A DNA stretch of 64,000 nt from a virus (IMGVR_UViG_3300027819_000006); one strand, 5' to 3'. Positions 19,411-57,315 are shown, counted from the first letter of the stretch. Made by a program: numbers and translations. Notes: generated by a model not told the origin, from the letters alone.

Positions 19411-20040
19411 TCATATTTTTTTAAATTTTTTGCAAATATTTCTATATAATGCTGAGTTTATTTTTATAGCATAAAATCCACTAGAATTTGTTATCATTAT
19501 TTCATGTTTACTTTTTATTGCTCTATCCAAATTTTCTGAAGAATATGTATTTACATGATCTTTGAAAAAATCATATCCAGATTTTAATTCTTCCTCATAT
19601 GTTTCTCTGGGTAATCTATGTATTAAATCATAATCATCTCTATTCTTTTCGACATAATCAACATAATGAATTAAAGAATCACTAAAAGCTCTACTCCATA
19701 AGTATTTAAAATCATCTATCATGAATATTCTATATATTGTCCCATGTAGATTGGCTGTCACTTTTGATCCTGTACAAAAAGTTGAATCACTCATTTTTAT
19801 AAATCCAAAATATTTAGCAGCATTATCAAATCCTTTTACAAATCCTTTATTATCTTGTAATCCTGTTGGTATATTTTTTGCAATTATAGATTTGAAAAAA
19901 AATTCTCTTGTAACAGATATTCCTTTGTATAGAGGCAAATTTTTAGACTCAGTTAAAAAATGTGAACAATCTTTTGTAATAAGATTGTATACTTCTTGAA
20001 CATTAACAGATAATATTTCTATAGCTTCTTTTAGTTTCAT
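19411..20040 (-). CDS. leader-tagged ADP-ribosyltransferase-fold-like protein (paralog family)
   Basis: MKLKEAIE leader; LPLYKG, STFCTG, KHEIMI; paralogous to 30565-31165 and 56223-56855. Confidence 0.6.
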   Translation of the reverse strand: MKLKEAIEILSVNVQEVYNLITKDCSHFLTESKNLPLYKGISVTREFFFKSIIAKNIPTGLQDNKGFVKGFDNAAKYFGFIKMSDSTFCTGSKVTANLHGTIYRIFMIDDFKYLWSRAFSDSLIHYVDYVEKNRDDYDLIHRLPRETYEEELKSGYDFFKDHVNTYSSENLDRAIKSKHEIMITNSSGFYAIKINSALYRNICKKFKKI

Positions 20041-20042
20041 AA

Positions 20043-21509
20043 TTAATTTACTAACTGATAAATTGTCTGTCCTGGTTTTCTAAGTCTACTTGGTGCTATA
20101 AAAGCTTTAAAATCGTCTCCTTCGGAGATCTGAATTCCATCTATCTGAATGAGTCCTCTAGTTTGTATAACTTGAAAACCAACACTTCCAGTCAAAACTG
20201 ATCCAACTAATGTATTCTTAACTACAACTGGCTGCCATGTTCCTGTATCTGTGACCGCAGTTAATGTAACAGCTGAACTTCCCAATGTAAATATTATTCT
20301 ACCTGATGTAGAACCAGATATAGATCTATATCTTAATGAGCAGACATAATCATTTCCAGTAAATAGAAGTGCTGAATTTGATATATTCTGTAAAACTCCA
20401 GTATCTGCTGAAACAGCATTAATTCTAATACCAGATGCTCCATAAAAAATATTATTATTATCTTGAACTATAATAGGATTTGGAGAACCAGAGGGTGTCC
20501 AAACATTCTGAGAATTTTGAATCAGGTTTTCTGATCCCATTTCAAATCTTATAGTATCATCTGAAGGATCAATTGCTAAGAATCCTCCATGATCTAGAGA
20601 GCCTCCTTGTAATGATAATAAATCACCAGAAGCAGATAAGCCCATGATAATTGTTTGTTCTGATGAAATAATATCTGAACCCTGAAAACCTGAAGGTGTT
20701 CCATCTAGATGATTTGGCGTTGAATCTGTAATAGACCCAGATATAGCAGAAAACAATTGAAATGCAGATACTGAATCTAATCTCCACCATCCAGCTAAAA
20801 CATTTGAAGAAGTGGTAAAATCATTTATAGCTAAATCTTCTGGTGCCTTGCCAATAGATGTCAATGATGCTAATCTATTTATAGAACTTACAGAACCCGT
20901 AGCAAGCCATAGTCTCATTTCATCTATGACTCCACCAAATGCAATATTTCTTTCGCCTAACTGAGAAGCAGTCAAAACAGATGTAGTCCCAATAGTTCCT
21001 GATGCATATGCAGCACCATTTAAAAATATATTCATTGTCTTTGCACCAGATGCATATAAACAAAAAACATGATTCCAAGCTGTAGTAACTATAGAAGAAG
21101 TGCCAGACAACACATAAGTTAAATCATGATCAATTCTAAATTCTATTACTGAAGATGTTCCTGCAGATAAAATATGTGCACTATATATTCCATCAAATCC
21201 AGAAGATGTAGCACAAGATGATCTCATTATAGAGACATCAAAGAATGTATTATGTGTATTACCAGATATATTAGGTTTTATCCAACAATCAAAAGACAAA
21301 TTAGCAGCAGAAGTTCCTGATGTTCCAATATCTTCTGTAATTATTATGCTATCAAGAGTAATAGAGTTATTGATTCCATTAAAGGGAATAGATTTTAAAG
21401 ACAGAACTCCTGGAGTATCTAGAAGGTTTATCACCTCTGGATTCTCGATCTGGCGCGAAAGTATGCTCTGAAAACTGCCAGAACTTATTGGGTTTAAATA
21501 GTTGAACAT
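20043..21509 (-). CDS. virion structural protein with LamG domain and C-terminal carbohydrate-binding-like domain
   Basis: AWNHVFCLY, GVIDEMRLW, AGWWRLD. Confidence 0.75.
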   Translation of the reverse strand: MFNYLNPISSGSFQSILSRQIENPEVINLLDTPGVLSLKSIPFNGINNSITLDSIIITEDIGTSGTSAANLSFDCWIKPNISGNTHNTFFDVSIMRSSCATSSGFDGIYSAHILSAGTSSVIEFRIDHDLTYVLSGTSSIVTTAWNHVFCLYASGAKTMNIFLNGAAYASGTIGTTSVLTASQLGERNIAFGGVIDEMRLWLATGSVSSINRLASLTSIGKAPEDLAINDFTTSSNVLAGWWRLDSVSAFQLFSAISGSITDSTPNHLDGTPSGFQGSDIISSEQTIIMGLSASGDLLSLQGGSLDHGGFLAIDPSDDTIRFEMGSENLIQNSQNVWTPSGSPNPIIVQDNNNIFYGASGIRINAVSADTGVLQNISNSALLFTGNDYVCSLRYRSISGSTSGRIIFTLGSSAVTLTAVTDTGTWQPVVVKNTLVGSVLTGSVGFQVIQTRGLIQIDGIQISEGDDFKAFIAPSRLRKPGQTIYQLVN

Positions 21510-21904
21510 TTTTTAAACAAACCTATATTTTTCAATATAAAGGGGAATTTACGTGTCTCATATGATTTATATATCATTCTATTTTTAAACAAGTCTACAT
21601 AAATTGTATCTATACTTTTAGATTTTTCTAATTCATTTATTAGATTTTCCATAGCTCTTTTTGATACATTTTCTTTAGAGTATTCTAATCCTAAGCTAGT
21701 GATAGACTCATCTTTTAATCTTATCCATCCTAAATTTTCATAAACATAAATAAATATATCATCTATATTCTTAAATTTATAGCTCTTTCCAAATTTTCTC
21801 ACTAATAGATCTTTATGTAGCTCACTAGAGTATCCTATAAATTTACCTGTATCATCTATAAATAGAGAATTTTGTAAGCTTTCTAATAAAGTTTTTAATT
21901 TCAT
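21494..21904 (-). CDS. leader-tagged small protein
   Basis: MKLKTLLE; paralogous to 21974-22399 and the N-part of 31069-31578. Confidence 0.7.
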   Translation of the reverse strand: MKLKTLLESLQNSLFIDDTGKFIGYSSELHKDLLVRKFGKSYKFKNIDDIFIYVYENLGWIRLKDESITSLGLEYSKENVSKRAMENLINELEKSKSIDTIYVDLFKNRMIYKSYETRKFPFILKNIGLFKKCSTI

Positions 21905-21973
21905 AATTATAGATCCAGAGACAAAATTACAAACGCGCTAGTAAAATTTTTTGCATCATATAATCTTACATAG

Positions 21974-22399
21974 TTAATATGTTTTATGTATGATAAAGTC
22001 ATTAGTATATTCCAAAATGATCATAAAAATATATTGATCAATGTCTCTTAACTTAATTATTCTATATTTCCAAAAACTTTTAAAAACATCATCGATATAA
22101 ATTTTAAAAGGATTATATTTAACTATAAAGTTAAATATTTCTTTTTTAGCTAAATTTGTTAACATTCTATAATTAAAAGATATACACATATCTGTATTAC
22201 TTAAAACAACTCTTGTATATCCATGAGAATAAGCTTCATCATACATCTCATCCCCAGAATTATGTTGATCTATATTGTGAAATATTTGTTTATTTCTAGA
22301 TAAATATTCAAAATGGTCTTTAACTTCAATAAATATTCCATCATCATTAACCCAATATAGTCTGTATTTAATATATTCTAATAATGTTTTTAATTTCAT
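21974..22399 (-). CDS. leader-tagged small protein
   Basis: MKLKTLLE; YW...H...AY..GY.R pattern. Confidence 0.7.
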   Translation of the reverse strand: MKLKTLLEYIKYRLYWVNDDGIFIEVKDHFEYLSRNKQIFHNIDQHNSGDEMYDEAYSHGYTRVVLSNTDMCISFNYRMLTNLAKKEIFNFIVKYNPFKIYIDDVFKSFWKYRIIKLRDIDQYIFMIILEYTNDFIIHKTY

Positions 22400-23211
22400 A
22401 AATCAAGCTGCAAAATTACAGATGTCGAGGTAAAATTTAATTTTTTAATAGGTTGTGCAAGTTTTGAGATTGCTAGAAGTTCTCCTTCTTGATTATATAG
22501 TCCCACAGAACTTATAATCGGAGAAAAATCCAATCCAGAACTAACTAAAAATGGAGCAAATTCTGCTGCTGTTGTAGAAGATGTCAATGGATCAGACATC
22601 CAGTTTCCAACTCTACCAGAATTGAAAAACGTTGGGTTTAGAGAGTAGTTTTGCTCGTCATGAGGACAGCGACAGAAGACATTCAATCCTGTATGATTTA
22701 CTTTTGATGAATATGAAATAGATGTAATTGCCAAAGTCAAATTTGCTGAACCAGCTGCTGTAACTACAAACATTCCATCATCTACTAGAACACAGCCTAC
22801 AGTAGCACTTGTTGATTTTTGTAGCAACTGACCAGAACCAGAGTCTATATAGTCTCCAGCAAAATCTCCAGTTACAGTAGCTGTCAGAGAACCTTTTTGA
22901 AACCCTGTGTCATAGAATCTTTTCTTCAATGAAAATATTCCAATATATAAAGAAGTCAGACCAGAATATGAATTATAGAATCCTCTGTTGAATAGAGTCA
23001 TCTGTGCATTATTGTAATGTCCACTAAAACTCCCTGTTACTGCTGCTGTTAGAGAACAAGCAGAAGAATTTAGAGTGTCTAAAGCTGTTATAGAGAAATT
23101 GCGGCTAGTATAAAAATTTGTATACAGAATATCAGAAGGATTTAATTGAACATAGGCAGATTCTATATCAGAGTTGACAACGATAGGAGTTTTGGGAGTG
23201 TTGAAAGCCAT
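22396..23211 (-). CDS. virion structural protein, C-terminal VGLY..G.LLA..KL..P domain
   Basis: ISSVGLYNQEGELLAISKLAQPIKK; paralog of 24083-26257 and 26812-27678. Confidence 0.75.
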   Translation of the reverse strand: MAFNTPKTPIVVNSDIESAYVQLNPSDILYTNFYTSRNFSITALDTLNSSACSLTAAVTGSFSGHYNNAQMTLFNRGFYNSYSGLTSLYIGIFSLKKRFYDTGFQKGSLTATVTGDFAGDYIDSGSGQLLQKSTSATVGCVLVDDGMFVVTAAGSANLTLAITSISYSSKVNHTGLNVFCRCPHDEQNYSLNPTFFNSGRVGNWMSDPLTSSTTAAEFAPFLVSSGLDFSPIISSVGLYNQEGELLAISKLAQPIKKLNFTSTSVILQLDL

Positions 23212-23213
23212 TA

Positions 23214-23648
23214 TTACATTCCAATATTTCTATAAATATCATAAATAAATTTATCTACATTCTGTATAATATTTTTTGGCACTTTATTAAATGATAGATA
23301 TGGATCAATAAAATAATCTTTATATTTTATGAAAGAATGCCCATTGACATATCCACTTATCATATCTTCTATGAGATTATTAACAATTTTATTTTTAAAA
23401 TCTATTCTTTTTATATCTACATTTTTTCTCATATAATCTATAAAATTATCTATTTTATCTTCATCCCAAAAAATGAATTCTAAGTCTTTATAATATGGTT
23501 TATTTTTAAACTTTTCTTCTATATTATACACAGAATCATGACATTCTTCGCCATATGAACAATCTTCAGATTTTAAAACAAAATCAATAATTTCATTTTC
23601 TACATTATTAACAGAAAATGTTTCATTTATTAGATGTTTAAGTTTCAT
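23214..23648 (-). CDS. leader-tagged papain-fold-like protein
   Basis: MKLKHLINE; ECH ... GHSFIKYKDYFIDP (candidate C-H-D triad). Confidence 0.5.
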   Translation of the reverse strand: MKLKHLINETFSVNNVENEIIDFVLKSEDCSYGEECHDSVYNIEEKFKNKPYYKDLEFIFWDEDKIDNFIDYMRKNVDIKRIDFKNKIVNNLIEDMISGYVNGHSFIKYKDYFIDPYLSFNKVPKNIIQNVDKFIYDIYRNIGM

Positions 23649-23968
23649 ATTTTAATGTTGTAATCTGACTTATATGTAGAATTATAAAACTGTTGTTTTA
23701 ATTTCTGTAATTCTCTAATCAATTCATCAAAAAATGTCTGTGTGACAGATTTAGATGTATCTGCTGCTAACATCAGAGCTTCTGGCATTCTATTCTTAAT
23801 AACTTTAAGTATTGTATGCTTCAATGGTATTAATTTTTGTGCAGCTTCTTTTGGATGTCCAAGAGCAGAACCACGAGATTTTAGAAACATGTCAAGAGTT
23901 CCAGTTTCTTTTATCAACTCTTTTTCTATCTCTTCTTTGATAAGTTTTTTTAATTGTTTTTCAGTCAT
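23645..23968 (-). CDS. leader-tagged small protein
   Basis: MTEKQLKKLIKEEIEKE. Confidence 0.65.
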   Translation of the reverse strand: MTEKQLKKLIKEEIEKELIKETGTLDMFLKSRGSALGHPKEAAQKLIPLKHTILKVIKNRMPEALMLAADTSKSVTQTFFDELIRELQKLKQQFYNSTYKSDYNIKI

Positions 23969-24082: not shown

Positions 24083-26257
24083 TCAAAAATCCATCAAATT
24101 TTGAATTATTATATCTGTATTAGAATCTTTTCTTATAGGGTTTGCAAGTTTAGAAATTGCTAAAAGATTCCCCCAGTCGTCATACAACCCCACAGTTGTA
24201 ATATAAGTTGCTGGTGAATCTAACAAGCTATCATTTGTATCAGGTGAAACAGATGTTGGGTTCTCTGAATAATTATATTCTGAACCAGAGATTGTAGCAT
24301 TCAGCATCAGTCTTCCTCTATTTTCTATAGAATCAAAAGCTATTCTTCTGATATTGAAAGCTGAATTATTATTTCCTGTAACTGTAAATCCAAAGTCTCC
24401 AGTAGTTCCAGATGCAGGATATAACCAAAATAGTCCAGCATTTGCATCATTATTATCTAATATGATAGTTTTCAGATCATAATAGATTAATCCTACTCTT
24501 GTAATTGTGCCATCACCACCAGATCTAAATATTCTACCTTGTTTCATTCCATTTTGCAAAACAGTTTCAGGTTGATCTGTATATAAATATGTCCTCAGAA
24601 TAGAAGATGCAGAAGATTCTGATATTGGCATAGCTGTAGTTGTAATATCGTCATGATCAAATAAATCTATTCCACTATTTCCAACTAGAACTCCAGTATT
24701 TGAATATTTGCTTATATCGTCAGCAGACAGAGTATTTCTTTCATTGAAATTCCACCAAGCAACTATATTTGTAGAAGTAGATCCTCCTGTCAATGTAGGA
24801 TCCCAAAAATTGCTGAATAGAATGCCAGCTGTTGATGAAGCAGTAACCAATTTATTTATCTGATCTTTAATTCCTGTGCTACCATCTGTAAATCTTTTAT
24901 TCCACATTCTTATATGTTGAATCTGTCCATCATAGCCACCATCTAAATTTGTATCACCAGATAAAGCTAAAGATACTCTATCACCAGTAGTATCAGTTTT
25001 TGCTCTATTATAGTTAGAAATTCCTATGTATAGATTATTGGCAGAGTTTGTAGCACCATCTACCATATCTCCATAAGAAATACTTGTGGTCTTCAAAGGA
25101 ATTCTCTGGTCAAACATATTAGTCTGAACTACTGGTCCATTTGCTGCATCTGAACCGTTTAACCTTGGATCAACTTGTTCACTATTATATAATTTGTAAC
25201 CATCAATATAACCAAATACTGCTCCAGCACCAGATTCTACAGTATTTGAACCATCTACACCAGATATTCCCCAACTAACTATTAATCTATGAAACTTGCC
25301 ATCATAGATATTTATGCCTACATCATCTGGAATGAATAGACCAGAAGCTTGAACATCTTTCTGAGCAAATGTATTTGTAAAATCTGTATCTGAAGAAGAG
25401 CCTCTTATATAAAATCTAAATGCTGATTTCTGTTTGTCTGGTGATTCACAGAGTTCTAACTTCATAAAAGCATTTTGAGTGCTGATATTTGATCCATCAA
25501 AACCAGAGTTTGAAAGTCTTCTCCACAAAATAGTAGAATTAACATTATATGGTCTTATCACAGCTTCTATTGTCAGAGCACTTGTTGCTAAATCTAAACT
25601 GCTATTAGGTGCCCATCTGACTCCAAAGAATGATTTTGTAGGAACACCAATATCTCCGCCATAGGAATTTTTTAAATCTAAAGCTGTAGTAAATCCCGTG
25701 GCATTTCCTGTCACTATTCCCGTAGCAGAACTATTTGAGTTATTAAATTCCATTCTAAAAGAAGAAGGTAATATATGATCTTTTGCTAAATCTCTTCTTA
25801 ATGATATGACTCTAGCTACAGTCAAGTTTATAGATGTAGTAGAGCTAATTATAGAAGTACTACTTTGAGCAGAATATATATTATCTTGTCTGTATAGATA
25901 TCCTTGTAGATAATTGAACAGAGCTTGATGAGACATTGAAGAATTGTCATTAGAGCTGCTTTTATAATTCTGCACAGCAGAGTTAGATAGGAAACATCCA
26001 ACTGGTCTTTCAGCTGTCAGAGAACTTCCAGGTATAGTAGTTTTGTCAAAATTCCATAGATATTTTACTTCTTGAGCTTGAGTTAGGCCAAATTGTAGAG
26101 GAACATCTGTTCTTAAAAGATTTACTTTACCAAGAGATTTGATAGCTGTAAAGAAATGAACATTAGAAGCACAAGGACTTATATTAGAGATAGAAATAGT
26201 CTCTTGATTATCAAACTTTATAGGAATTATCTGCGAAGGTTCAAAGACTTTAAACAT
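24083..26257 (-). CDS. virion structural protein, LamG domain plus VGLY C-terminal domain
   Basis: LTIEAVIRP, DGKFHRLIVSW, IQHIRMWN, ITTVGLYDDWGNLLAISKLANPIRK. Confidence 0.8.
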   Translation of the reverse strand: MFKVFEPSQIIPIKFDNQETISISNISPCASNVHFFTAIKSLGKVNLLRTDVPLQFGLTQAQEVKYLWNFDKTTIPGSSLTAERPVGCFLSNSAVQNYKSSSNDNSSMSHQALFNYLQGYLYRQDNIYSAQSSTSIISSTTSINLTVARVISLRRDLAKDHILPSSFRMEFNNSNSSATGIVTGNATGFTTALDLKNSYGGDIGVPTKSFFGVRWAPNSSLDLATSALTIEAVIRPYNVNSTILWRRLSNSGFDGSNISTQNAFMKLELCESPDKQKSAFRFYIRGSSSDTDFTNTFAQKDVQASGLFIPDDVGINIYDGKFHRLIVSWGISGVDGSNTVESGAGAVFGYIDGYKLYNSEQVDPRLNGSDAANGPVVQTNMFDQRIPLKTTSISYGDMVDGATNSANNLYIGISNYNRAKTDTTGDRVSLALSGDTNLDGGYDGQIQHIRMWNKRFTDGSTGIKDQINKLVTASSTAGILFSNFWDPTLTGGSTSTNIVAWWNFNERNTLSADDISKYSNTGVLVGNSGIDLFDHDDITTTAMPISESSASSILRTYLYTDQPETVLQNGMKQGRIFRSGGDGTITRVGLIYYDLKTIILDNNDANAGLFWLYPASGTTGDFGFTVTGNNNSAFNIRRIAFDSIENRGRLMLNATISGSEYNYSENPTSVSPDTNDSLLDSPATYITTVGLYDDWGNLLAISKLANPIRKDSNTDIIIQNLMDF

Positions 26258-26259: not shown

Positions 26260-26786
26260 CTATGTTACTCTAATTTTATATTTTTTATCATTCTTGCTTG
26301 AATATATAATACATTTAGCTATAAAACATAAATTATTGAATTCTTTATTGTTTTCTAAATGGTTACAACTATCTTTTTTAACATAAGCTACTGTGACATG
26401 TGGTTTGTAATCAGGATATGAATTTTTATTATCAAAATTGTCTTCTATATCGTAGTGTAATTTTTCTAAATCTTTACTTGCTATTCTTATAGTTACTACA
26501 TCATGATCACTTGAATCTCTGAATATTTGAACATTTTCAAACAGAATCTAACTTGTCCATAGTTGTCAAGATAATCTCTAATTTTATCTGCTTTTTCATC
26601 CGTTAAGCCATAGAGAACTGTAACGTGTATATCATTTTTAGATTGTCTACCCATGTCATCTTTTGCATATATAGAATTCTGGGGAATATTTTCAATTCCC
26701 CATTTGTAGATTCTACTTGAGATATTTGTTGGTAGATCAATCTGAGTAGATGAATAAGAATGTTCTAGTAGATAAGATAGTTTCAT
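26260..26786 (-). pseudogene. leader-tagged 2H phosphoesterase (Acb1/T4 gp57B-like), split by a 1-nt frameshift near 26540
   Basis: MKLSYLLE; IHVTVLYG in the first frame; -1 frame continues VQIFRDSS...YPDYKPHVTVAYVK...KIRVT* (stop 26260). Confidence 0.75.
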
Positions 26787-26811: not shown

Positions 26812-27678
26812 CTAGTACTGAAGAGTGGTAACTATCGAAATTTCTTTTGTGAACAGCTTTCTAACTGGTGGACTAACTTTACCGACTGCCAAAATTTCTC
26901 CTGAATCATTATACAATCCAACAGTTGTGACATACGTTGTTGGAGAACTTGTTAACGATCCAGAAATCGTTCCCAATGTAGGATTAGATATGGCTGTCGG
27001 ATTTGTAGTATAATTACATTCATTTGGAAATGCTCTACAAAAATACATTGTCTGCTTTAAGATATTCAGAGCTTGAAATGACAGAGAAGTACATACAACA
27101 AAACCTGCAGATGCTGCTCCAAATGTAAATCCTGAAGCTGAGTCACAGAGAAAATGTGGCCATCCTGTTCCACCATGAAATAGTAAAGAAGCTGTATCAT
27201 AAAATACAGTTCCTACTATATTAGATGTATTACTTTGCGAAACTAAAGATCCTTTTCTACCAACAGATCCAGTAATAGAAGATTCTGGTATATCTATATA
27301 TGTATTATTAGCAGAAGTTCCGAATGTAAAAGTAGCAGTAACAGTACCAGAAACTATTCCATCATCAGAAGTAGTTCTACCAATAGTCATAGCTCTAATA
27401 AGAGATGTAGTAGAAGCCAAATTATGAGCAACAGGAACTACAGCTGAGGCAGTTGATGAGAAATAGTAATTAGCTATATTTCTAAATGCAGAACTCAGAG
27501 GAGTAGTTGTCACAGTTCCTTGAGCATTATTCATATATGCTGTATCTGAAGCTTGAGCTACAAATGAATTTATATTCTTATTTTGTGCAGCTGAAAGAGA
27601 AGTCAGAGCAAAAGATGTTTTATTTGATATCTCATTCTGCACGATATCACGGTTTTCTTGTAAAGATATGAGACTCAT
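26812..27678 (-). CDS. virion structural protein, VGLY C-terminal domain
   Basis: PTTYVTTVGLYNDSGEILAVGKVSPPVRK. Confidence 0.75.
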   Translation of the reverse strand: MSLISLQENRDIVQNEISNKTSFALTSLSAAQNKNINSFVAQASDTAYMNNAQGTVTTTPLSSAFRNIANYYFSSTASAVVPVAHNLASTTSLIRAMTIGRTTSDDGIVSGTVTATFTFGTSANNTYIDIPESSITGSVGRKGSLVSQSNTSNIVGTVFYDTASLLFHGGTGWPHFLCDSASGFTFGAASAGFVVCTSLSFQALNILKQTMYFCRAFPNECNYTTNPTAISNPTLGTISGSLTSSPTTYVTTVGLYNDSGEILAVGKVSPPVRKLFTKEISIVTTLQY

Positions 27679-30564: not shown

Positions 30565-31165
30565 TAATCCTTTCTATTTTTTATTATTTCTGTATATAGT
30601 TCTTTTTCATATATAACTTCTACTGCATAATATTTGTCACAAGTAATCATTACTTCATATTTCGATCTTATAGCTCTTACTAAATTTTTATCTGTATAGT
30701 ATTCCTTTACTTCATCCCACCATCTCTTTATTTGCTCTATATATCATGTAGATTTACATACTCCAATCCTACATCTCTACCAGTATCTTTTATAAATTTT
30801 TCAAGATAGTCTTTACATCTTGTACTATATGTGAGAAATGAAATGTTTCTATAGGAAAAATTAAGTGTACAGCTCCATATTCAGCAGCTTTTTTAGAATC
30901 ACCTGTACATAGTATAGAATTAGATCTATGAGCTATAAAATTTTTGCTCAATTCACTGTCAACATAATTAAAGAAAAGTTCATGCTTAGTCTTTGATCTC
31001 CTATCTTTTCTGACTGTTCTTATTAATTCTCCTCTTTCTGTTCCTCTATATAATGGTAACAATTTTGATTAGTCTAAAAACTTTGAACAGTCTACGATTA
31101 TAGATTTAGCTAATTGTTTTATGTCAGTGCTATTTATAGCTTCTTTTAATAGTATTTTTGTCATA
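30565..31165 (-). pseudogene. third ADP-ribosyltransferase-fold-like paralog, broken by TAA (31069) and two frameshifts
   Basis: DCSKFLD*SKLLPLYRG aligns to DCSHFLTESKNLPLYKG; later frames give YSTRCKDY and RAIRSKYEVMITCDKYYAV. Confidence 0.75.
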
Positions 31166-31578
31166 TGAATATTTTCTATTAATCCTGAATAATATTCAAA
31201 AAATTCATCTAAATTTATATCTATGTATTTTTGTTGTTTATTGTCTATACTAATCTTTTTGGGTTTATTATTTACAATTAGATTTACAGCTACTTTAAGT
31301 GATTTTTTTGAAACTTTTAGTTTATCATAATGCATATATGCATCACCATATAAAAATCCTATCCTAATATATCCAAAAGTAAACGATTTTTCATATAAAT
31401 CTTTATAGTTTGTTTCATCTTTAATAAATGCTGTCATTTCTGGAAATTTTTCTGGATGCAAAAACATCCAATATTTATGTCCTTCATTTCTATTCACTTT
31501 CAGAGCTTTAGCTAGTGGTGTAATCCAATAAAGAGTTGGATAATAGTCATGTAGTTCTAATATTAGTTTTAGTTTCAT
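31069..31578 (-). CDS. leader-tagged protein, in frame with the 5' part of the ART-like pseudogene
   Basis: MKLKLILE; N-part paralogous to 21974-22399; internal second leader MTKILLKE at 31165. Confidence 0.6.
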   Translation of the reverse strand: MKLKLILELHDYYPTLYWITPLAKALKVNRNEGHKYWMFLHPEKFPEMTAFIKDETNYKDLYEKSFTFGYIRIGFLYGDAYMHYDKLKVSKKSLKVAVNLIVNNKPKKISIDNKQQKYIDINLDEFFEYYSGLIENIHMTKILLKEAINSTDIKQLAKSIIVDCSKFLD

Positions 31579-35532: not shown

Positions 35533-35886
35533 CTACAGACTGATAATAGAATTACCAGTTCCAGCTAAATATCTATTGTACAAAGACATAAACCCTATTT
35601 TGAAAGAACTTGTCTTGATAGAATCCAATATTCCATCTAAATAGCCATCACTTATAGCATATTTGCCTTCTGCTGCCAATGCTCTTGCATTCTCTACATA
35701 GTTAATTAGATCATCTTTTCTTTTCTTTGTAGCAAATCCTGATAGTTCTTGATTATGATCTATGATATATTTTGTGAAAGATTTCTTTTCAGATATATCT
35801 ACTACTTCAGACATGACTTTTCTGATTTCATCTTTTACGATTCTTCTGATTATCTGTGCTTCTGTTAGTTGCTGTTTCTGTTTCAT
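35533..35886 (-). CDS. leader-tagged small protein
   Basis: MKQKQQLTEAQIIRRIVKDEIRKVMSE; start at 35886 avoids overlap with the next gene. Confidence 0.6.
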   Translation of the reverse strand: MKQKQQLTEAQIIRRIVKDEIRKVMSEVVDISEKKSFTKYIIDHNQELSGFATKKRKDDLINYVENARALAAEGKYAISDGYLDGILDSIKTSSFKIGFMSLYNRYLAGTGNSIISL

Positions 35887-35911: not shown

Positions 35912-36172
35912 TTATAGATGTAATTGTTCCAGCTTTGAGTAATACTGCTTATTTTCTTTAAGGTGGGCCCAAGCAATCTTTCCTGTCTTGATTGGATCAT
36001 CGTCTGTTATGTTTGTTTCTGGATCTTTTAACCCATGCTCGCTCTCAATATTTAAGCCCATTGTAAACTGATCTAAGCTGATCTGTTTCCAATCAATGCC
36101 AAGCTGGTTTCCAATGTCTTTAGCTCTTTTCTTAGATATTTGTTTTGATTCTAATAAGATGTTGAGTTTCAT
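35912..36172 (-). CDS. leader-tagged DUF5661-like protein
   Basis: MKLNILLE; ESEHGLKDPETNITDDD..KIAWAHLKE..YYSKL. Confidence 0.7.
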   Translation of the reverse strand: MKLNILLESKQISKKRAKDIGNQLGIDWKQISLDQFTMGLNIESEHGLKDPETNITDDDPIKTGKIAWAHLKENKQYYSKLEQLHL

Positions 36173-36792
36173 TATGGTTTGCCAATTTTAGCAAGAGGAT
36201 GATATATTAAATCTTCATCTCTTTTAATTGAGTTCATATAATATTCATAAGATTGTAATCCAAATTTTTCTAATCTTTTAAATTTATATGCTCCTTGAGT
36301 AGTAGATGTATCTATTTTATCTCTATTTTCATAGTCTTCTTTTGCTTTTTGAGCATTTTCTAATCTTTTTGAAATGCTATTCTTAACTTCTTCAAATATT
36401 TTTGGCACAATATAAATTTTAATCAGATATCTATCGAGAGGTTTTATTGGACCATTTATTAGCAATTCTTCTGCTTCAACTTTATTTTTTTGACTTTCTT
36501 TTCTTCTATCATGAAAAGCATATGCATAAGGTCTAATTTTATATCTAGCTCTTAATTTATCCCAGTCTAATTCAAAACAAACATCCATAGATTTGCTGCC
36601 TATAATAACATATCTGTCTCTAGTAAGTGATACGACACCTGATTCAAAATGAGGATTCTTAAATGTAGCTACATCTTCATATTCTACTTTGCCTATACCA
36701 TTCATAGCAACTATATTTTCTGCCCACCCTACATAAGTCCAATGATATAGAGATTGTCTAGATTGTTCTAATATTAAATCTTTAAGTTTCAC
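36172..36792 (-). CDS. leader-tagged ADP-ribosyltransferase-fold-like protein (His type)
   Basis: GTG start gives MKLKDLILE; LYHWT, VSLTRD, EAEE motifs. Confidence 0.55.
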   Translation of the reverse strand: MKLKDLILEQSRQSLYHWTYVGWAENIVAMNGIGKVEYEDVATFKNPHFESGVVSLTRDRYVIIGSKSMDVCFELDWDKLRARYKIRPYAYAFHDRRKESQKNKVEAEELLINGPIKPLDRYLIKIYIVPKIFEEVKNSISKRLENAQKAKEDYENRDKIDTSTTQGAYKFKRLEKFGLQSYEYYMNSIKRDEDLIYHPLAKIGKP

Positions 36793-39516: not shown

Positions 39517-39938
39517 TATCATTTTTAATTCTCTTCAATATGAAATCATGTTTATGTCTAATTCTATCGATAATATATCCATAATTTAAAATATATTAAT
39601 TAATTTCCTATAAAGATCTTCTTTTTCTTCTTCATTAGCAGTTATGTGTATATATTTTCTTTTTCTAAAAAATCTCTAACTGCATTTATAACATTAGAAA
39701 ATACTATAAATTCATGACCAGATTTAGAAATCAGTGGATCGTAATATACTGTATTATCATTTTTTGTTTTTATACCAAAATAAACATCCCAATAAGTATT
39801 TCCTATATTTTTAGAAACTACATGTTTTGATATGCTTGTTCTATACTTTAATTTATCTACTGTAAAATAATATTCTATTCTATCAACAGATCTTCTTTTG
39901 GTAAATTTTTTAGTGTCAAACAATTCTTTAAGCAGCAT
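39512..39938 (-). pseudogene. leader-tagged paralog of 40621-41043, with apparent frameshifts after 39645
   Basis: MLLKELFD; alternative frame continues ITANEEEKEDLYRKLI, matching FTAKEYSRIKLYKRMI of the paralog. Confidence 0.55.
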
Positions 39939-39940: not shown

Positions 39941-40624
39941 CTAATTTCTCTTTTTAGGAATAGATCCACATTTGCAGCCATATAGAATCAAAGTACTCAT
40001 ATCGCATTCACAGTCATGAATCTTTTTAGTCTTACTATCTGGTACAGTATTTACAATCCATTCACTCTCATGATCATATTCTGGAGGATCACATGCATTA
40101 TAATCTATATCTGCATCTTCTTCAAATATTTCACAGAAGAAATTACCAAGACATTCTCTATGATATAAGTCTTCTGTAAATAGATGAGAATAGCTAAGTT
40201 GTTTCATATCTTCTTGGTTTATTGAATATTTCTTATAGAAATTATCATTAACATTTACAAGCTCTAATAATATATCTCTATCTATGCCATGTGCAAAATT
40301 ATAGTAATCTTTCTCTGTTCTCATTTTCATAGGAGTAGTACAGTAATATCCATCTTCTAATATTGGAACTTTATTATCCATAAAATCAAATTCATCAAAA
40401 TATATTTTATGATTGTCATACATAGTCCAGTCTAAGATGTAATCTTTATATGTTACACAATCGAAACTACCAGCATAATTATGACTGTCAACTATGTTAA
40501 TCATGTTATTTTTATTATGTATTACTGTCACTACATTGATACCAGCTGTAATATTTTTTATTACATCTTTGATCAATCTTGTAGTTTTACCAGATCTTCT
40601 ACCAGATATTTCTAAATACATCAT
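39941..40624 (-). CDS. P-loop NTPase domain with C-terminal CxC-x8-GCxC module
   Basis: GRRSGKT Walker A, IYFDE Walker B; CECDMSTLILYGCKC. Confidence 0.75.
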   Translation of the reverse strand: MMYLEISGRRSGKTTRLIKDVIKNITAGINVVTVIHNKNNMINIVDSHNYAGSFDCVTYKDYILDWTMYDNHKIYFDEFDFMDNKVPILEDGYYCTTPMKMRTEKDYYNFAHGIDRDILLELVNVNDNFYKKYSINQEDMKQLSYSHLFTEDLYHRECLGNFFCEIFEEDADIDYNACDPPEYDHESEWIVNTVPDSKTKKIHDCECDMSTLILYGCKCGSIPKKRN

Positions 40625-41043
40625 GATTCCTCTCGTATTAATCTAAAAAATCCGTTATTGGCATTACTACTTTTAGATAACTTAAATCCAATAGTAGGAG
40701 CTAGTTTTTTAATCATTCTTTTGTATAATTTAATTCTAGAATATTCTTTAGCTGTAAAGTTCAAAAAATTAGTTTTTTCTTGTTTTAAAAATTCTTTTAT
40801 TGCATCGACGACAATAGAAAATACTTTAAATTCATTACCGAGATTATTTAAATCTACATAATTATTTGCTTCAAATCTTATATTCCATTGTTTGTCGACA
40901 GTTCCATTATAATGAAAAACAATTTTCTCTATGAATACTCTATATTCTACATCATCTATTTCAAATTTACCAACCCATTCATCTTCTTTTTTAGTAACCC
41001 ATTGAATTTTATCAACAGTATTGAATATTTCTATAAGTTTCAT
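40621..41043 (-). CDS. leader-tagged small protein
   Basis: MKLIEIFN; paralog of 39512-39938. Confidence 0.7.
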   Translation of the reverse strand: MKLIEIFNTVDKIQWVTKKEDEWVGKFEIDDVEYRVFIEKIVFHYNGTVDKQWNIRFEANNYVDLNNLGNEFKVFSIVVDAIKEFLKQEKTNFLNFTAKEYSRIKLYKRMIKKLAPTIGFKLSKSSNANNGFFRLIREES

Positions 41044-41048: not shown

Positions 41049-41267
41049 TTATGTGATGTCAACTTCTAGCTTTGCACTGCCAGCAGTAGCTTTGACGTTC
41101 ACGCATACTTCGTATTGTATAGTTTCTCCAAGATGTTCATTCTTGAAATCTAATAGTTTAGCTACTTGAGCATTATTCTTTCCAAACTGACCTATGAGCT
41201 GAGATACTTCTGTATATGTTACAGGTATCATAGATTCTGTTAATATATCTTTCAGTTTTATTCTCAC
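41049..41267 (-). CDS. leader-tagged small protein
   Basis: MRIKLKDILTE. Confidence 0.65.
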   Translation of the reverse strand: MRIKLKDILTESMIPVTYTEVSQLIGQFGKNNAQVAKLLDFKNEHLGETIQYEVCVNVKATAGSAKLEVDIT

Positions 41268-41282: not shown

Positions 41283-41534
41283 TTATGTTAGATCAAACTT
41301 TTTTATACCCAGACTCTGAGATTTTACTTCTACTTCTATGTGTATAAGAATTCTTTCTTCTCCATGATCTTTTTCATGTGCTTTTTTCATGAAAGCAAAA
41401 AGTTCATTACGCTTATTTTTATTAAGTAAAGATGCGCTATTGCTGAGAAAATTTCTTATTTCATCAGCATCTGAATGCACCAGTTCTTCTTTGATCAATT
41501 TTCTTAATTCTTTTACCGTCATTTTATACTCCAA
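41283..41534 (-). CDS. leader-tagged small protein
   Basis: MTVKELRKLIKEE. Confidence 0.65.
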   Translation of the reverse strand: MEYKMTVKELRKLIKEELVHSDADEIRNFLSNSASLLNKNKRNELFAFMKKAHEKDHGEERILIHIEVEVKSQSLGIKKFDLT

Positions 41535-41543: not shown

Positions 41544-43355
41544 TTAAGCTATCCGCATAACGATATCATTATTTGCATTCTTTAATTCCCAGCAAGCTGT
41601 CTCAGGAAATCTTAATACTCCGCCTTTTGTATTAGCCAAAATGTTATATTCTGTATTAGAATAAACTCTTCCATCTACTGTACCAGCAATGTTGACAATA
41701 TTAAATTCTGCCACCGACCTTACTTCTGGCAAACCCTGAATTTTTGAGATCATATCAGGAATCACAATGTAGTCATTAAAATTGGATTGGCTTATGTCCA
41801 ATTCATTCTTAATGACAAAGTAAGATTTGATTAATGCTTCATTAGGGTTAATGTCAGGTTCGGGTACGATGGCAAAATTTACACCAATATTGATTATACT
41901 TCCATTTGTTAATTTTACTGAATCAGAGAATGATCTGTATCGTGATATAAATATTTCTATATTATTTTTTAAGACACTGTCAGGTGCTACTAAATAACCT
42001 TTTGTATCTCGAGCTATAGTAATTAGCTCTACGCCTAAATTGTTTGTAGGGTCTTTTCTAGCATAACTTCTGAATACAGTTCCAAAGTTTTGTGGCATAG
42101 ATAGAGCTATAACTTGATAATCTTGTAGAGTAACAGCTCTATTCTGAGCATTGAAGAATGCAGATGTTCTCTGTCTTATTTCATCTAGAGTTTCTCTTTC
42201 AGATCCTCCAAATGCTGGTGATATATTATTGGCTGACAGACTTCTCAGAATATTAGAAGCAATATTTGATGAAACAGATTCAAAATTTGCAGTTTTGAAT
42301 GAATATCGCAAATTTCTAATTGTTTTCAATGTATTTGCAGCAACATTTGTAGCAATCCCCCCGCCTACTCTGTAATTCACTGTAACAGCTATATTTCTTG
42401 GTGCTACACCCAAACTATTGCCATCAATAAAATTTGTAGGATCTATTGTAGCTGGTGAGAACCCAGATGGAGAACCCCTTAATGTTGGAGGTAAAGCATA
42501 GTCTTCAGGATTTGGTATAATCTCTGTATCTTCTACTCCAAGAGTACCTGAACCGAATACAAGAGAAGTTCTTCCTTTTGTTTCTCTTTCTGTTACAAAT
42601 CTTCTTGGTGATCTTTTAAATGCCAGCACAAATGGAGTATTACCAGAACTAGAAGTTGTGTTAGGTATTCCAGAGAATATTACATCTTGAGCTAAATAAT
42701 CTACTTTATTCCATTCTGTATTATCAGATCCAGATACAGCTACTATTTCTGTAACATCTGGTTCTGGTAGAATAATCTTAAGAAATGGAGTAGCAATAGC
42801 TCCTGCTGTATAGATAAAAGTTTTAGTAGTACCAGCTATAGCCGATATTCCAGATATAGATAAAGTTGTAGTTCCTGCAGCTGTATTGTTAGTAGCAGTT
42901 CTATTTGCTGTCAAAGAAAAGTCTACATCTTGCATTATCTCAAATGGAATAGATGGCAATAAATTGGTCAATACTCCAGTACCCTTATTGATTGTAAACA
43001 GAGAATTAGCAGAAACAGATGTTGGTACAGAAGCGCTTAATGAAATATTTACTAGAGCAGGAACTCTTGATTTGGGCTGCCTACCGAAAGTCTTAGCATT
43101 AGATAGAACATTTCTTTCTTCAATAGCTCTATTTGGATCTACTTCATTGATCTGTCTGTCTATGTAGAAAGAAAGCATGTCTCCGACAAATGCTTCCATT
43201 TCTAGTATAGCAAGACCTCCAGAAGCTTGGTTGAAATCAGAATACTGATCTGGAAAGTGATTGCGAAGATATGTCAGCAGTTCAAGCTTGATGCTGTCGA
43301 AGTCTTTAGAAACATATCCGATTTGGCGTATTTCTTTTGGTGCATTTACTGCCAT
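41544..43355 (-). CDS. baseplate wedge protein (T4 gp6 / baseplate J-like)
   Basis: KDFDSIKLEL...DFNQASGG, GGSERETLDEIR, QNRAVTLQDY. Confidence 0.9.
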   Translation of the reverse strand: MAVNAPKEIRQIGYVSKDFDSIKLELLTYLRNHFPDQYSDFNQASGGLAILEMEAFVGDMLSFYIDRQINEVDPNRAIEERNVLSNAKTFGRQPKSRVPALVNISLSASVPTSVSANSLFTINKGTGVLTNLLPSIPFEIMQDVDFSLTANRTATNNTAAGTTTLSISGISAIAGTTKTFIYTAGAIATPFLKIILPEPDVTEIVAVSGSDNTEWNKVDYLAQDVIFSGIPNTTSSSGNTPFVLAFKRSPRRFVTERETKGRTSLVFGSGTLGVEDTEIIPNPEDYALPPTLRGSPSGFSPATIDPTNFIDGNSLGVAPRNIAVTVNYRVGGGIATNVAANTLKTIRNLRYSFKTANFESVSSNIASNILRSLSANNISPAFGGSERETLDEIRQRTSAFFNAQNRAVTLQDYQVIALSMPQNFGTVFRSYARKDPTNNLGVELITIARDTKGYLVAPDSVLKNNIEIFISRYRSFSDSVKLTNGSIINIGVNFAIVPEPDINPNEALIKSYFVIKNELDISQSNFNDYIVIPDMISKIQGLPEVRSVAEFNIVNIAGTVDGRVYSNTEYNILANTKGGVLRFPETACWELKNANNDIVMRIA

Positions 43356-43366: not shown

Positions 43367-43765
43367 TTAAATAGTTAGTGCTACTGTTTCTGAAAAATTT
43401 GGTGCATTTTTCAAAGAATATGTAATCTTTATCATGATCGACGTATCGTCTAAATAGTCTAATTCTGATTTTGTAAGCAGCTGTATATCATTCAATGTAA
43501 TATTTGGCAAGAAATTTGTAACAGCAGAAGTTATTTCATTTCTCATTTTCAGAAGCATTTCATCTCTATTGATATTGTTAAATAATTCTCCACCAATAGT
43601 AGTGATGTTTGTACCAATAGTAGGAAACAATAATCGTTCTCCTTTTCTAGTCATAAGAAGAACTTTTAAATCTTCTCTAGTAGCATTTACTGTAGTCTTG
43701 TTTCCTTCTGGGATTCCCTCATTACCTTTGATGAACGGAAATTTCCAATTAATCGTTTTAGACAT
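43367..43765 (-). CDS. baseplate wedge subunit, gp25/GPW family
   Basis: LLMTRKGERLLFPTIGTNI...FLPNITL. Confidence 0.85.
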   Translation of the reverse strand: MSKTINWKFPFIKGNEGIPEGNKTTVNATREDLKVLLMTRKGERLLFPTIGTNITTIGGELFNNINRDEMLLKMRNEITSAVTNFLPNITLNDIQLLTKSELDYLDDTSIMIKITYSLKNAPNFSETVALTI

Positions 43766-54818: not shown

Positions 54819-54980
54819 TCATCCTGGCATTTTTGATTGTTTTTCTCTTGCTTTATTTTCATCATCAATAGCTTTCTGCACCCTTTGGATATACCATTTT
54901 CTCAATCTAATAGGTATTGCTCTAACTTCAAAGAAACTAAGTTTGCAGTAATACGTACACTGGAAGATTTCTTCATACAT
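54819..54980 (-). CDS. 53 aa ORF, likely the -1 frameshift extension of the tail assembly chaperone
   Basis: -1 frame from T TTT TTC (55022-55016) is open into MYEEIFQ...KMPG*. Confidence 0.7.
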   Translation of the reverse strand: MYEEIFQCTYYCKLSFFEVRAIPIRLRKWYIQRVQKAIDDENKAREKQSKMPG

Positions 54981-55000
54981 CGATTCTACATATCGACTTA

Positions 55001-55864
55001 TTAGATCTGAGGCCAGAAAAAATTATTTGAGATGTTGACGTTAACTATATTTGTCGCTCCACATGAATTGCAAGCAAAATTCTGTTTCATAATAACATCT
55101 GGTTCTTGGTCATCTAAATATTTTCTGAAAGCTCTGACATTTCTCAGACTTAGCGAATCAACAAATCTATTAATCTGTCCTCTATTTGTATCACCATTAA
55201 GAGATAGAATCTGCTTCTTCAAAGTACTAGTTGTATTAGTCTCTGCTGCAGCACCTCTGACTTTTTTCATTGCATTTATTTCATCTGAAATCTCTTTGCT
55301 GTCTTGAGCAGTTAAAAACTTGAATTCTACTTTATTCTTCTTGTCAGGGAATTCATATGAAAACTTGTTCATACCATCTTCTGCAGGTTGCAGAGCTAAC
55401 ATGTTTATATTTAATTTAGACAGATCAAAGTTGAATTCTTTATTCAGCTCACCACAGTCAGGACATGTAACATCTACTGGATATTCTGGTCCATAGCCTG
55501 TGACTCTTATAGCTACCATCAGAGCATTTCTGTCTCCTAATAGTAATTGTTCAGGATGTACAGCTTTATTGACCATACAGCTTTTTAACAACTCATCTAT
55601 AACTCTACCAGATCTAATAAGAGACAGTGATGTCAATATATCTTCTTGTGGAGCTGCCATATGTTTAATTTCTATTTCTTCAGCATTATATAGAGTAGAA
55701 TCTTTAGAATAGACTAAACCTTTAGATGGTATTTGTACAAATTCTGTAGGAACTTTATATTTGTCTTCATTTGCAGCTAATAATTTTGCATTTTCAATTG
55801 CTTTTTGTCTTGCTAGTTCTTCTGGATCGCCAAATGACATAACTGGCGTCTTTTCATCAGGCAT
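55001..55864 (-). CDS. tail assembly chaperone / T4 gp26-like baseplate hub assembly protein
   Basis: IPSKGLVY, QEDILTS, GDRNALMVAIRVTGYG.EY, CPDC and CNSC pairs. Confidence 0.85.
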   Translation of the reverse strand: MPDEKTPVMSFGDPEELARQKAIENAKLLAANEDKYKVPTEFVQIPSKGLVYSKDSTLYNAEEIEIKHMAAPQEDILTSLSLIRSGRVIDELLKSCMVNKAVHPEQLLLGDRNALMVAIRVTGYGPEYPVDVTCPDCGELNKEFNFDLSKLNINMLALQPAEDGMNKFSYEFPDKKNKVEFKFLTAQDSKEISDEINAMKKVRGAAAETNTTSTLKKQILSLNGDTNRGQINRFVDSLSLRNVRAFRKYLDDQEPDVIMKQNFACNSCGATNIVNVNISNNFFWPQI

Positions 55865-55883
55865 ATAGCCTCCTTTATGTTTT

Positions 55884-56186
55884 TTAGATATCTTTTTCGT
55901 AGACTAGATTGTGAAACAGTTCTTCTACATTGTAGTTATCAGTTTCTTTTAATTCTGACAATCTTTTCTTTATCAGTTCTTCAATGCTTCTTTTGTAATT
56001 GCTACCCTTTCCATATTTCAGAAATGACTGTTTCATGATGTTAAAATTCTTTTTGAAGCTACTCTTGTCTAATATTGTATAGATTATTTTAGCATTCTTT
56101 AAATCTTTATATGGAGCAAATTCATGATTGCCAATTATTTCATTAATTTCTTCTTTTATGATCTGTCGGAGTTGCTTAGTAGTCAT
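55884..56186 (-). CDS. leader-tagged small protein
   Basis: MTTKQLRQIIKEE. Confidence 0.65.
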   Translation of the reverse strand: MTTKQLRQIIKEEINEIIGNHEFAPYKDLKNAKIIYTILDKSSFKKNFNIMKQSFLKYGKGSNYKRSIEELIKKRLSELKETDNYNVEELFHNLVYEKDI

Positions 56187-56222
56187 TATATTAACTCTAT
56201 TTTATTTTTTAACATGTTTTCT

Positions 56223-56855
56223 TTAAGCTGCTAATTTTAACATTTTATCGACAATATCCTTTTTAACTGCATAGTATTCTTTACAATTTATCAGTATTTC
56301 ATTATCAGATTTTATAGCTGAATAAATATCAGATTTTCTGTATGTATTTCTATATTCTTCAAAAAAATTGTAACCTTCATCATAACTAAAAATATACTTA
56401 GATCTTTCTTCATAATCGATTTTTTTTATTTTTTCAACATAATAAGTCGCGTAATCATATATTTCATCACTCCAACTGATATTGTAATCTCCAATTATGA
56501 ATATATTATACATGTCTCCATAAGTATAGGCTTCATCTAAATTACCTGTGCAAAATACAGAATTACTTCTATTTGCTTTAAATCCATATTTTTTCATTGA
56601 ATCATTAAACCCTTTGAAAAAATCTTGTCCAAGGCTACCAATATTAAGATCTTTTAATGTAGAACGATTTTGCAATATTGTAAACTTTAAAAAATCTCCT
56701 TTGATAACATTTCTAATACCTCTATATAGACAAAATTTCAAATCTTTTGAATTATATAGAAATTGCTGGCAATCTTTTTGAATGATATTATATATTTCTT
56801 CAGATCTAATATCTAATTTTAGAATATCATTTTCAAATATTTTTCTAAGTTTCAA
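56223..56855 (-). CDS. leader-tagged ADP-ribosyltransferase-fold-like protein
   Basis: GGAG + TTG start gives MKLRKIFE; CLYRG, SVFCTG, DNEILI. Confidence 0.6.
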   Translation of the reverse strand: MKLRKIFENDILKLDIRSEEIYNIIQKDCQQFLYNSKDLKFCLYRGIRNVIKGDFLKFTILQNRSTLKDLNIGSLGQDFFKGFNDSMKKYGFKANRSNSVFCTGNLDEAYTYGDMYNIFIIGDYNISWSDEIYDYATYYVEKIKKIDYEERSKYIFSYDEGYNFFEEYRNTYRKSDIYSAIKSDNEILINCKEYYAVKKDIVDKMLKLAA

Positions 56856-56859
56856 AAAA

Positions 56860-57315
56860 TCAGCTCCATTTCCATACATTAAGTTTTTTGAATATCAGAT
56901 GTAATTTTTCTAAATCTTCCTTTTCAAACAGCCCAAGCTTCACAATTTTCTTATATTGCTGAGCTTGTTTCTTGCCAGTCTCATTGAATGAAGCTTTGAC
57001 TATATAATTGATCTTTGTATTATCTTTTACATCTAGCTGTTTGAATATCATAAAATCAATCACTTTCTGCATCTTTTCATCTTTTTCATCGAATAGCTTG
57101 GGAACAGTTTTTTTGAATGTAACTTTGCTATTCTTAACAAACTTTACTTCATTCACTTCAGAACCATGCTTTTCAAAATATTTTCGTAATAGTCTAGATT
57201 CTTCTGGTGTAAAACTAGTATTTTGAATAGCATTTAGACTCTTAGGTTTTTCTACAGCATCTATTTCTTCTTTTATGATTTGTCGAATAAGTTGTAAAAA
57301 CTTATTTTCATTCAT
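56860..57315 (-). CDS. leader-tagged small protein
   Basis: MNENKFLQLIRQIIKEE. Confidence 0.65.
   Translation of the reverse strand: MNENKFLQLIRQIIKEEIDAVEKPKSLNAIQNTSFTPEESRLLRKYFEKHGSEVNEVKFVKNSKVTFKKTVPKLFDEKDEKMQKVIDFMIFKQLDVKDNTKINYIVKASFNETGKKQAQQYKKIVKLGLFEKEDLEKLHLIFKKLNVWKWS

Follow-up and report, generated by a model that had tools for sequence, protein, structure and literature searches.

Seventeen small genes between positions 19,411 and 57,315 of the 64,000-nucleotide (nt) viral sequence IMGVR_UViG_3300027819_000006 (this whole stretch of DNA is called the window below) encode proteins that begin with a short leader, of one of two classes, placed ahead of mostly unrelated domains. 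The source is a T4-like jumbo phage from groundwater with a genome of ∼272 kb. We think that the leaders are probably N-terminal propeptides of the capsid-targeting-sequence (CTS) type known from T4, greatly expanded; this reading draws on genomic context and on the proteomics of homologues. A short amphipathic N-terminus would dock the newly made protein into the prohead scaffolding core, a gp21-type S77 protease would cut after the Glu of an (L/I)-x-E site, and the freed cargo would remain in the head and exit with the DNA at infection.

Two leader classes and their separability from the cargo

A first-pass annotation of the window had listed 17 leader genes, and all are present on the minus strand with the N-termini ascribed to them. 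Class I (MKLKxLLE-type) comprises 12 genes, named here by their lower coordinate: 19411, 21494, 21974, 23214, 26496, 31069, 35912, 36172, 39642, 40621, 41049, and 56223. Their leaders follow the pattern M-K-L-K/S/N/R-x-L/I-L/I/F-E, or the same with the Glu shifted one residue later; the general form is M-K/R-hydrophobic-x-x-hydrophobic-L/I-x-E. The five class II genes (xKQLRxIIKEE-type; 23645, 35533, 41283, 55884, and 56860) have the core L-R/K-x-L/I-I-K-E-E-I/L and the fuller form M-T-I-K-x-L-R/K-x-L/I-I-K-E-E. Two coordinates had to be changed: position 26260 is where a frameshifted gene ends (3'), its leader-bearing open reading frame (ORF) being 26496-26786 and its second half 26260-26547, and the gene placed at 39512 runs from 39642 to 39938. 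The start of 35533 is most likely an internal ATG at 35886 (MKQKQQLTEAQIIRRIVKDEI). GGAG lies 6 to 11 nt upstream of each alternative start (GTG 36792, TTG 56855, GTG 41267, and ATG 41522).

A leave-one-out position-specific scoring matrix (PSSM) for class I gave scores of ≥8 at residue 2 in 11 of the 12 candidates, compared with 0.07 matches expected there from shuffled proteins; internal matches in the window numbered 11, with ∼11 expected by chance. Hydrophobic-x-Glu occurs within the first 16 residues of all 17 leader proteins, and [LI]xE occurs in 16 of them (19411 additionally has L3-K4-E5), compared with an [LI]xE rate of 11/58 among the other window proteins, which served as controls. 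The leader Glu is mostly residue 8 or 9 in class I and residue 12 in class II. All-against-all BLASTP joined the genes into three small paralog groups only (19411/56223/30790, 21494/21974/31069, and 39642/40621), the remainder being unrelated, and the cargos behind the leaders fall into at least eight unrelated families. The Leu codons within the leaders differ synonymously (CTA, TTA, CTT, CTC, and CTG) and the DNA upstream of the leader genes is not conserved; thus, the leader is conserved at the protein level, with selection acting on the peptide, and a DNA-level repeat is ruled out. A secretion or lipoprotein signal is likewise ruled out, since the leaders have neither a hydrophobic core nor a lipobox.

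The tag is strictly N-terminal and separable from its cargo. Ten full-length metagenomic homologues of the DUF5661 protein 35912 (P0152-P0161) all lack its 9-residue MKLNILLES extension; their DUF5661 domain begins 5 to 12 residues past the Met or behind an unrelated N-terminus. Conversely, the leader persists across the family of 19411, the largest of the cargo families, whose cargo resembles ADP-ribosyltransferases (ART). An exhaustive HMMER search with 19411 returned 785 cluster representatives, and among 141 full-length representatives of this ART-like family, 82% start with MK or MR, 137 have hydrophobic-x-E within the first 13 residues, and the leader consensus is M-(K/R)-(L/F)-x-(E/Q)-(F/Y/L/I)-(L/I)-x-E. 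Between 13 and 43 residues separate the leader from the first conserved domain motif, and in ∼5 of 7 long multidomain members, in which the domain lies 90 to 1,700 residues in, a leader-like motif still stands at the extreme N-terminus. In the AlphaFold2 (AF2) model of 19411, residues 1 to 10 have a predicted local distance difference test score (pLDDT) of 57, compared with >90 for the fold. That the leader is an integral part of the cargo fold is ruled out by this flexibility and by the leaderless DUF5661 homologues.

We regard it as very improbable indeed that the shared N-termini are an artifact, whether produced by AT-rich codon usage (with its MK... starts), by selection for efficient translation initiation, or by paralogy that escaped detection. 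The genome, like the window, has a GC content of ∼30%, its proteins are rich in Lys, Leu, Ile, and Glu, and the three small paralog groups do exist; nevertheless, among the 58 other proteins of the window, residue 2 is K or R in only 8, the leader matches at that position far exceed those from shuffled proteins, and the most highly expressed structural genes have no leader. Such an origin is also contradicted by the presence of this leader both in Atu_ph07, an unrelated phage, and across 141 diverse representatives of the ART-like family, and by its absence from DUF5661 homologues elsewhere and from 95 genes outside the structural modules.

An uncleaved helix with a non-packaging use, such as chaperone or partner binding or oligomerization, is a rather improbable explanation. 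It would fit the short helix that AF2 places at residues 3 to 6. It would also fit an observation made in neck-module kinase-like proteins (L008:7511-9992 and L009; record ∼94.7-97.3 kb, outside the window), in which class I-like motifs, EREMKLKQIIKED and EQLKLKTILEQ, lie ∼70 to 80 residues ahead of the C-terminus, a position unexpected for a pure N-terminal signal; either fusion with small leader genes or protease sites within the proteins could account for these motifs. Against this explanation, internal matches in the window are at chance level, and the clearest of them, in 31069, is the start of a fused pseudogene. A single in-frame TAA (window 31062-31071) divides 31069-31578 from the truncated ART-like fragment at 30790-31062 (both minus strand), and the two represent a fused gene pair in decay, not separate genes; the old leader of 30790, MTKILLKEAI, now lies in the C-terminus of 31069, where it appears as the internal motif. 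A Glu at a fixed distance, an S77 protease on the same contig, and homologues found in virions all suit a propeptide better.

Leader genes in structural modules and homologues in virions

Exact-protein look-ups located the window on a contig of 271,885 bp in an ENA metagenome assembly, where it lies in reverse complement, and seven such look-ups extended it to 129.5 kb (record 50,652-180,128) with overlaps free of mismatches. The sequencing runs that carry window DNA are groundwater metagenomes, with no RNA run among them. Within these 129.5 kb, 95 genes belong to the head, neck, and tail modules, and 32 of them carry an N-terminal leader; three intervening nonstructural stretches contain another 95 genes, none with a leader (Fisher P = 2e-11). 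In this part of the genome, the leader is therefore not equally frequent outside virion genes. By module, the counts are 13/33 for the head, 2/17 for the neck, and 17/45 for the tail, baseplate, and fibers. The opposite strand yielded five weak profile matches only.

The head module, on the same contig but outside the window, encodes, in order, the large terminase, a T4-type portal of 1,242 amino acids (aa) with an intein (L012:1993-5721; an Intein_splicing match in Pfam lies between two Portal_T4 matches), a Peptidase_S77 protein, a homing-endonuclease-like protein, about a dozen small proteins, an acidic 352-aa scaffold-like protein (L012:15402-16460), three further MTIKQLRKLIKEE proteins, and a Gp23-type major capsid protein (L012:17413-19152). 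Most of the ∼12 small genes start MTIKQLRKLIKEE-like or MKLRQLLE-like, and the stretch from the portal gene to the capsid gene contains ∼13 leader genes. The S77 prohead protease (L012:8346-8960; PF03420) is of the T4 gp21 type: it is 35% identical to T4 gp21, and its GELDHP and GISSR align with the His and Ser motifs GELNHP and GVSSR of T4. The capsid protein itself begins MNDKLILE, which agrees with class I at positions 4 and 6 to 8. A ClpP-like gene outside the window (L006:3336-3935), which lies upstream of the sheath gene with carbamoyltransferase and HAD-hydrolase genes around it, encodes a second phage protease that is not related to S77. In another ORF outside the window (L011:5700-5979; record ∼65.7 kb), a class II-like KKELRELIKEEL lies upstream of the first ATG, GTG, or TTG, which points either to a frameshift out of the gene before it or to a start codon of a non-canonical kind.

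The first-pass annotation had described the leader genes as slotted singly between structural genes. They in fact occur in groups of one to four, and some of their neighbors are a homing-endonuclease-like gene and a P-loop gene. Packing is tight, with gaps of -16 to +36 nt to structural neighbors, suggesting co-transcription with them; late expression is predicted from this operon-like packing, and the T4 late promoter box TATAAATA was not enriched (26 matches versus 18.7 ± 4.0 expected).

Virion association is known from homologues in two cultured jumbo phages, in published data. By tblastn, the 19411 family is present as a tandem array in the Agrobacterium jumbo phage Atu_ph07, in which gp54 to gp63 are ten ART-like paralogs starting MRWEQLTE, MKWHQLTE, or MRLFQLLE. 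All ten were found in virions by electrospray ionization tandem mass spectrometry (ESI-MS/MS), with 3 to 15 unique peptides each (Table S5 of PMC6102473; molecular weights were used to align the gp numbers with the record), and the gp21 homologue of this phage is gp204 (PMC6102473). The authors did not remark on a leader or on an ART-like family. Within the first 200 kb of Atu_ph07 (258 coding sequences), proteins with M[KR] and an [LI]xE ending at residues 5 to 14, a feature set a priori, were in the virion in 16 of 20 cases, compared with 58 of 238 proteins without it (P = 1e-6). The second relative is Pseudomonas phage PA5oct, in which ESI-MS/MS underlies the annotation of the 40621 homologue (the EST35_0349 product, MHLFELFDQ...) as a structural protein.

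These data bear out part of the first-pass proposal of a virion-packaged effector arsenal: its context stands, in the form of an S77 protease, a Gp23-type capsid, restriction of leaders to structural modules, and homologues in virions. From this context and from T4 we infer the remainder, namely core docking, cleavage, a position inside the head, ejection, and a role in host takeover or counter-defense. For the enzyme-like class I cargos, an effector arsenal is plausible, with roles resembling those of T4 Alt and the T4 internal proteins; for the class II proteins, an effector role is doubtful. Class II genes are densest beside the scaffold and capsid genes, and their products may be prohead-core (scaffold-like) components like T4 gp67 and gp68.

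Several observations weigh against capsid targeting. Cleavage of the leader proteins and their position inside the capsid are predictions. The motif definition is partly post hoc, and 39642 and 40621 have their sole early (L/I)xE at residue 5, with no Glu at residues 8 to 9. The leader genes of the window lie amid tail, baseplate, and fiber genes and not head genes, and the counts cover 129.5 kb out of a genome of 272 kb. Of the cargos, two are broken: the gene for the 2H phosphoesterase is frameshifted and 30790 is truncated. In addition, 19411 has Lys at the position of its family's conserved Arg. The enrichment in Atu_ph07 falls to 5/9 (P = 0.05) once the paralogous ART array is removed, [LI]xE alone is not enriched among the virion proteins of that phage (P = 0.3), and its virions were purified with polyethylene glycol, so that some of the 131 proteins listed may be contaminants. 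Support from Atu_ph07 that is independent of the ART-like family is modest.

Some of these observations would suit a leader that sends proteins to the virion, but not to the head lumen as injected effectors, which we consider unlikely. Class II proteins, and perhaps some of class I, would then be core or scaffold accessories that are degraded and expelled like gp67 and gp68, or the leader would be a tail or baseplate address. The clustering of class II genes by the scaffold and capsid genes fits the former, as do the small size and Lys/Glu-rich composition of their products, which have no enzyme signature, and the DLIKEEK contained in T4 gp67. The Atu_ph07 data, moreover, say only "virion-associated". 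As for an address in the tail, leader genes lie amid baseplate genes in the window and also in two distant relatives, L001 and L021, in which class I or II leader genes stand beside gp6-like and gp25-like genes; class II-like genes are found near baseplate genes in both (in L001, upstream of the gp25-like gene). However, the true tail proteins of the window (sheath, tube, gp6-like, and gp25-like) have no leader, the enzyme-like folds of class I (ART-like and Acb1-like 2H) have no obvious assembly role, and the sole protease known to have such specificity works inside the prohead (PMC9026906).

If the leaders are indeed capsid-targeting propeptides, the injected proteins would act prior to any phage gene expression, which makes them prime candidates for counter-defense and host takeover. 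A simple sequence rule would list dozens of candidate injected proteins per jumbo-phage genome, the "unique structural proteins" of Atu_ph07 could be reread as tagged cargo, and a prepackaged Acb1-like nuclease and ART-like proteins would be candidates against the cyclic-oligonucleotide-based antiphage signaling system (CBASS) and other defense systems. More tentatively, it is possible that the tag M-(K/R)-hydrophobic-x-x-hydrophobic-(L/I)-x-E spans a very large, mostly uncultured jumbo clade of the T4 superfamily, one that includes groundwater phages and Rak2-like phages such as Atu_ph07, and marks hundreds of families of injected enzymes, kinases among them along with ART-like proteins and Acb1-like cyclic-nucleotide phosphodiesterases. 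Genomes alone would then suffice to show which effectors such phages inject. The second leader class may address a different head compartment or role.

Cargos and neighboring genes

All leader genes described here are on the minus strand, as are almost all genes of the window. ART-like cargos follow the class I leaders of 19411-20040 (MKLKEAIE) and 56223-56855 (MKLRKIFE; TTG start, with GGAG 8 nt upstream). Their family has a near-invariant Arg (in LYRG), a conserved Arg-Ser, and an invariant Glu (E180); 56223 keeps LYRG, and 19411 has Lys in place of its Arg. There was no Pfam match for 19411, a protein homologue search found no relatives for it or for 36172, and Foldseek against the PDB gave no significant match with the ART-like model. 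The AF2 model of 19411, built with the family alignment, has a pLDDT of 89. In a VIA-wide structure search it gave weak matches (Z 5.7 to 2.5), and at least 15 of the top 50 were ART-superfamily structures (Arr, diphtheria toxin, DarT, exotoxin A, cholix, PARPs, and Tpt1). ESM features of the 19411/56223 family lead to DUF2441 and DUF3841, which we take to be ART-clan families. We conclude with moderate confidence that the modeled fold is ART-like.

Four ART folds had been proposed at first. An ART-like cargo is supported for 19411 and 56223, and also for the pseudogene fragment 30790, which is in frame with 31069-31578 across the TAA. At most a candidate for an ART/DarT-like cargo is 36172-36792 (class I with a GTG start, MKLKDLILE, and an unknown 206-aa cargo): by ESM features, a DarT/PARP cluster comes at rank 49 with a score of 0.91, and the single-sequence AF2 model is unusable (pLDDT 40).

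The 2H phosphoesterase of the first-pass annotation proved to be an Acb1-like 2H phosphodiesterase (26260-26786; class I, MKLSYLLE) with two HVTV motifs. The second half of the gene matches PF23474 (Acb1) at 30.2 bits and PF13563 at 28 bits, both with a cutoff of 27. A -1 frameshift near 26547 (region 26496-26560) splits the gene, and the ENA and Logan assemblies agree in sequence there. No variant at this frameshift, or at the in-frame stop of 31069/30790, was seen in contigs of four groundwater runs; two full-length contigs from these runs may be source data and so may not be independent. Because the assemblies may share source data, they do not distinguish a pseudogene from programmed frameshifting, and the split may be either.

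The DUF5661 assignment of 35912-36172 (class I, MKLNILLES) holds firmly, with PF18905 matched at residues 17 to 83 (66.6 bits; E = 2.6e-18). That of a papain-like domain to 23214-23648 (class I, MKLKHLINE) survives only as a weak lead: this Cys/His cargo has no Pfam or PHROG match, and the resemblance to a transglutaminase core comes from ESM Atlas structures with template modeling scores of 0.40 to 0.45 to Transglut_core clusters, for a low-confidence model. Unknown cargos follow the class I leaders of the paralogs 21494-21904 and 21974-22399 (both MKLKTLLE) and 31069-31578 (MKLKLILE), and a further one, of 72 aa, that of 41049-41267 (GTG start, MRIKLKDILTE). DUF6934-like proteins with class I variants are encoded at 40621-41043 (MKLIEIFN), whose PA5oct homologue is in the virion, and at 39642-39938 (MLLKELFD), its truncated paralog.

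The class II proteins have no homology to one another beyond the leader by BLASTP. They are a small helical protein at 23645-23968 (MTEKQLKKLIKEEI), the class II-like product of 35533-35886 with its start moved to the internal ATG, small proteins at 41283-41522 (MTVKELRKLIKEEL), adjoining the gp6-like baseplate gene, and at 55884-56186 (MTTKQLRQIIKEEI), and a 151-aa protein at 56860-57315 (MNENKFLQLIRQIIKEEI).

PHROG profiles show that the window holds a contractile-tail module: sheath (61119-63452), tube (58603-59007), baseplate hub (55001-55864), gp25-like (43367-43765), and gp6-like (41544-43355) genes. The sheath is only ∼33% identical to its closest cultured relatives, and a related-loci search with the gp6-like gene found a single relative, at 31% identity. 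Pfam and PHROGs gave no match for most cargos or large neighboring proteins. Among the latter, large late proteins at 22396-23211, 24083-26257, and 26812-27678 have a common C-terminal domain of ∼270 aa, and those at 20043-21509 and 17193-18359 have Laminin_G_3 domains; none of the five has a PHROG match, and they are probably fiber or receptor-binding proteins. Three paralogous zinc-finger/NUMOD3-type homing-endonuclease-like genes lie at 11234-12097, 38283-39482, and 57372-58466, one of them within the late region.

Seven otherwise dissimilar proteins (2802-3191, 3982-4557, 6228-6623, 7535-8032, 9524-9763, 10882-11208, and 39941-40624) end in a common Cys-rich tail, C-x-C-D-(I/M)-x-T-L-(I/T)-L-x-G-C-x-C. 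Six of the seven are encoded in the nonstructural part of the window. This tail looks like a second modular tag, at the C-terminus, and is possibly a zinc knuckle.

Comparison with known systems

The nearest precedent is the CTS system of T4, in which internal proteins carry targeting sequences of 10 to 19 residues, targeting depends on residues 4 and 7 and processing on residues 8 and 10, and gp21 cleaves after Glu in L/I-x-E (PMC9026906). T-even internal proteins are diverse injected anti-defense proteins whose common feature is the CTS only (PMC3012670, PMC12373910). In the T4 record (NC_000866), ipII and ipIII begin MKTYQEFIAE, ipI MKTFKEF..., Alt MELITELFDE, gp24 MAKINELLRE, gp21 MNEPQLLIE, gp22 MLKEQLIAE, and gp67 MEGLIEAIK. 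As in T4, the groundwater phage has a short N-terminal M-K tag with hydrophobic positions and an (L/I)-x-E end on unrelated small proteins, along with a gp21-type S77 protease and a Gp23-type capsid. Unlike in T4, its leaders come in two classes and are not alignable as homologues of MKTYQEFIAE, at least 32 genes are tagged in 129.5 kb (compared with three internal proteins and Alt), and these lie within head, neck, and tail operons rather than at two accessory loci. The cargos here are mostly enzyme-sized, with activities predicted from sequence.

T4 Alt, an ADP-ribosyltransferase that is packaged in the capsid and injected, has a short N-terminal propeptide that is removed by gp21 (PMC9026906). 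Likewise, 19411 and 56223 are ART-like proteins with a short N-terminal leader, and the N-termini of 39642 (MLLKELFD) and of the PA5oct homologue (MHLFELFD) resemble MELITELFDE of Alt. In contrast to Alt, 19411 and 56223 have cargos of ∼200 aa (versus 682 aa) without detectable sequence homology to it, their ART activity is predicted only, and 19411 is without the conserved Arg.

In phiKZ, 201phi2-1, and SPN3US, a prohead protease related to gp21 cleaves many proteins of the virion interior behind a Glu, and phiKZ-like jumbo capsids carry a large protein cargo (PMC9026906, PMC5694885). The sites in these phages are S/A/G-x-E, often behind long propeptides, and a common short leader has not been reported; the phage described here has an (L/I)-x-E site in a uniform leader of 8 to 13 residues. 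The closest counterpart of 26260-26786, which is above the Pfam Acb1 cutoff and has two H-x-T motifs, is T4 Acb1 (gene 57B), an anti-CBASS 2H phosphodiesterase; unlike T4 Acb1, it carries a leader and its gene is frameshifted. To our knowledge, T4 Acb1 is not known to be packaged.

The principle is thus already known from T4, in which only a handful of injected proteins are known and were found through their common leader. New here are the leader consensus and its division into two classes, and also the scale: half the genome already contains at least 32 tagged genes. So too are the leader's conservation throughout a large family of metagenomic proteins and its connection with virion proteins that had been left unexplained in cultured jumbo phages.

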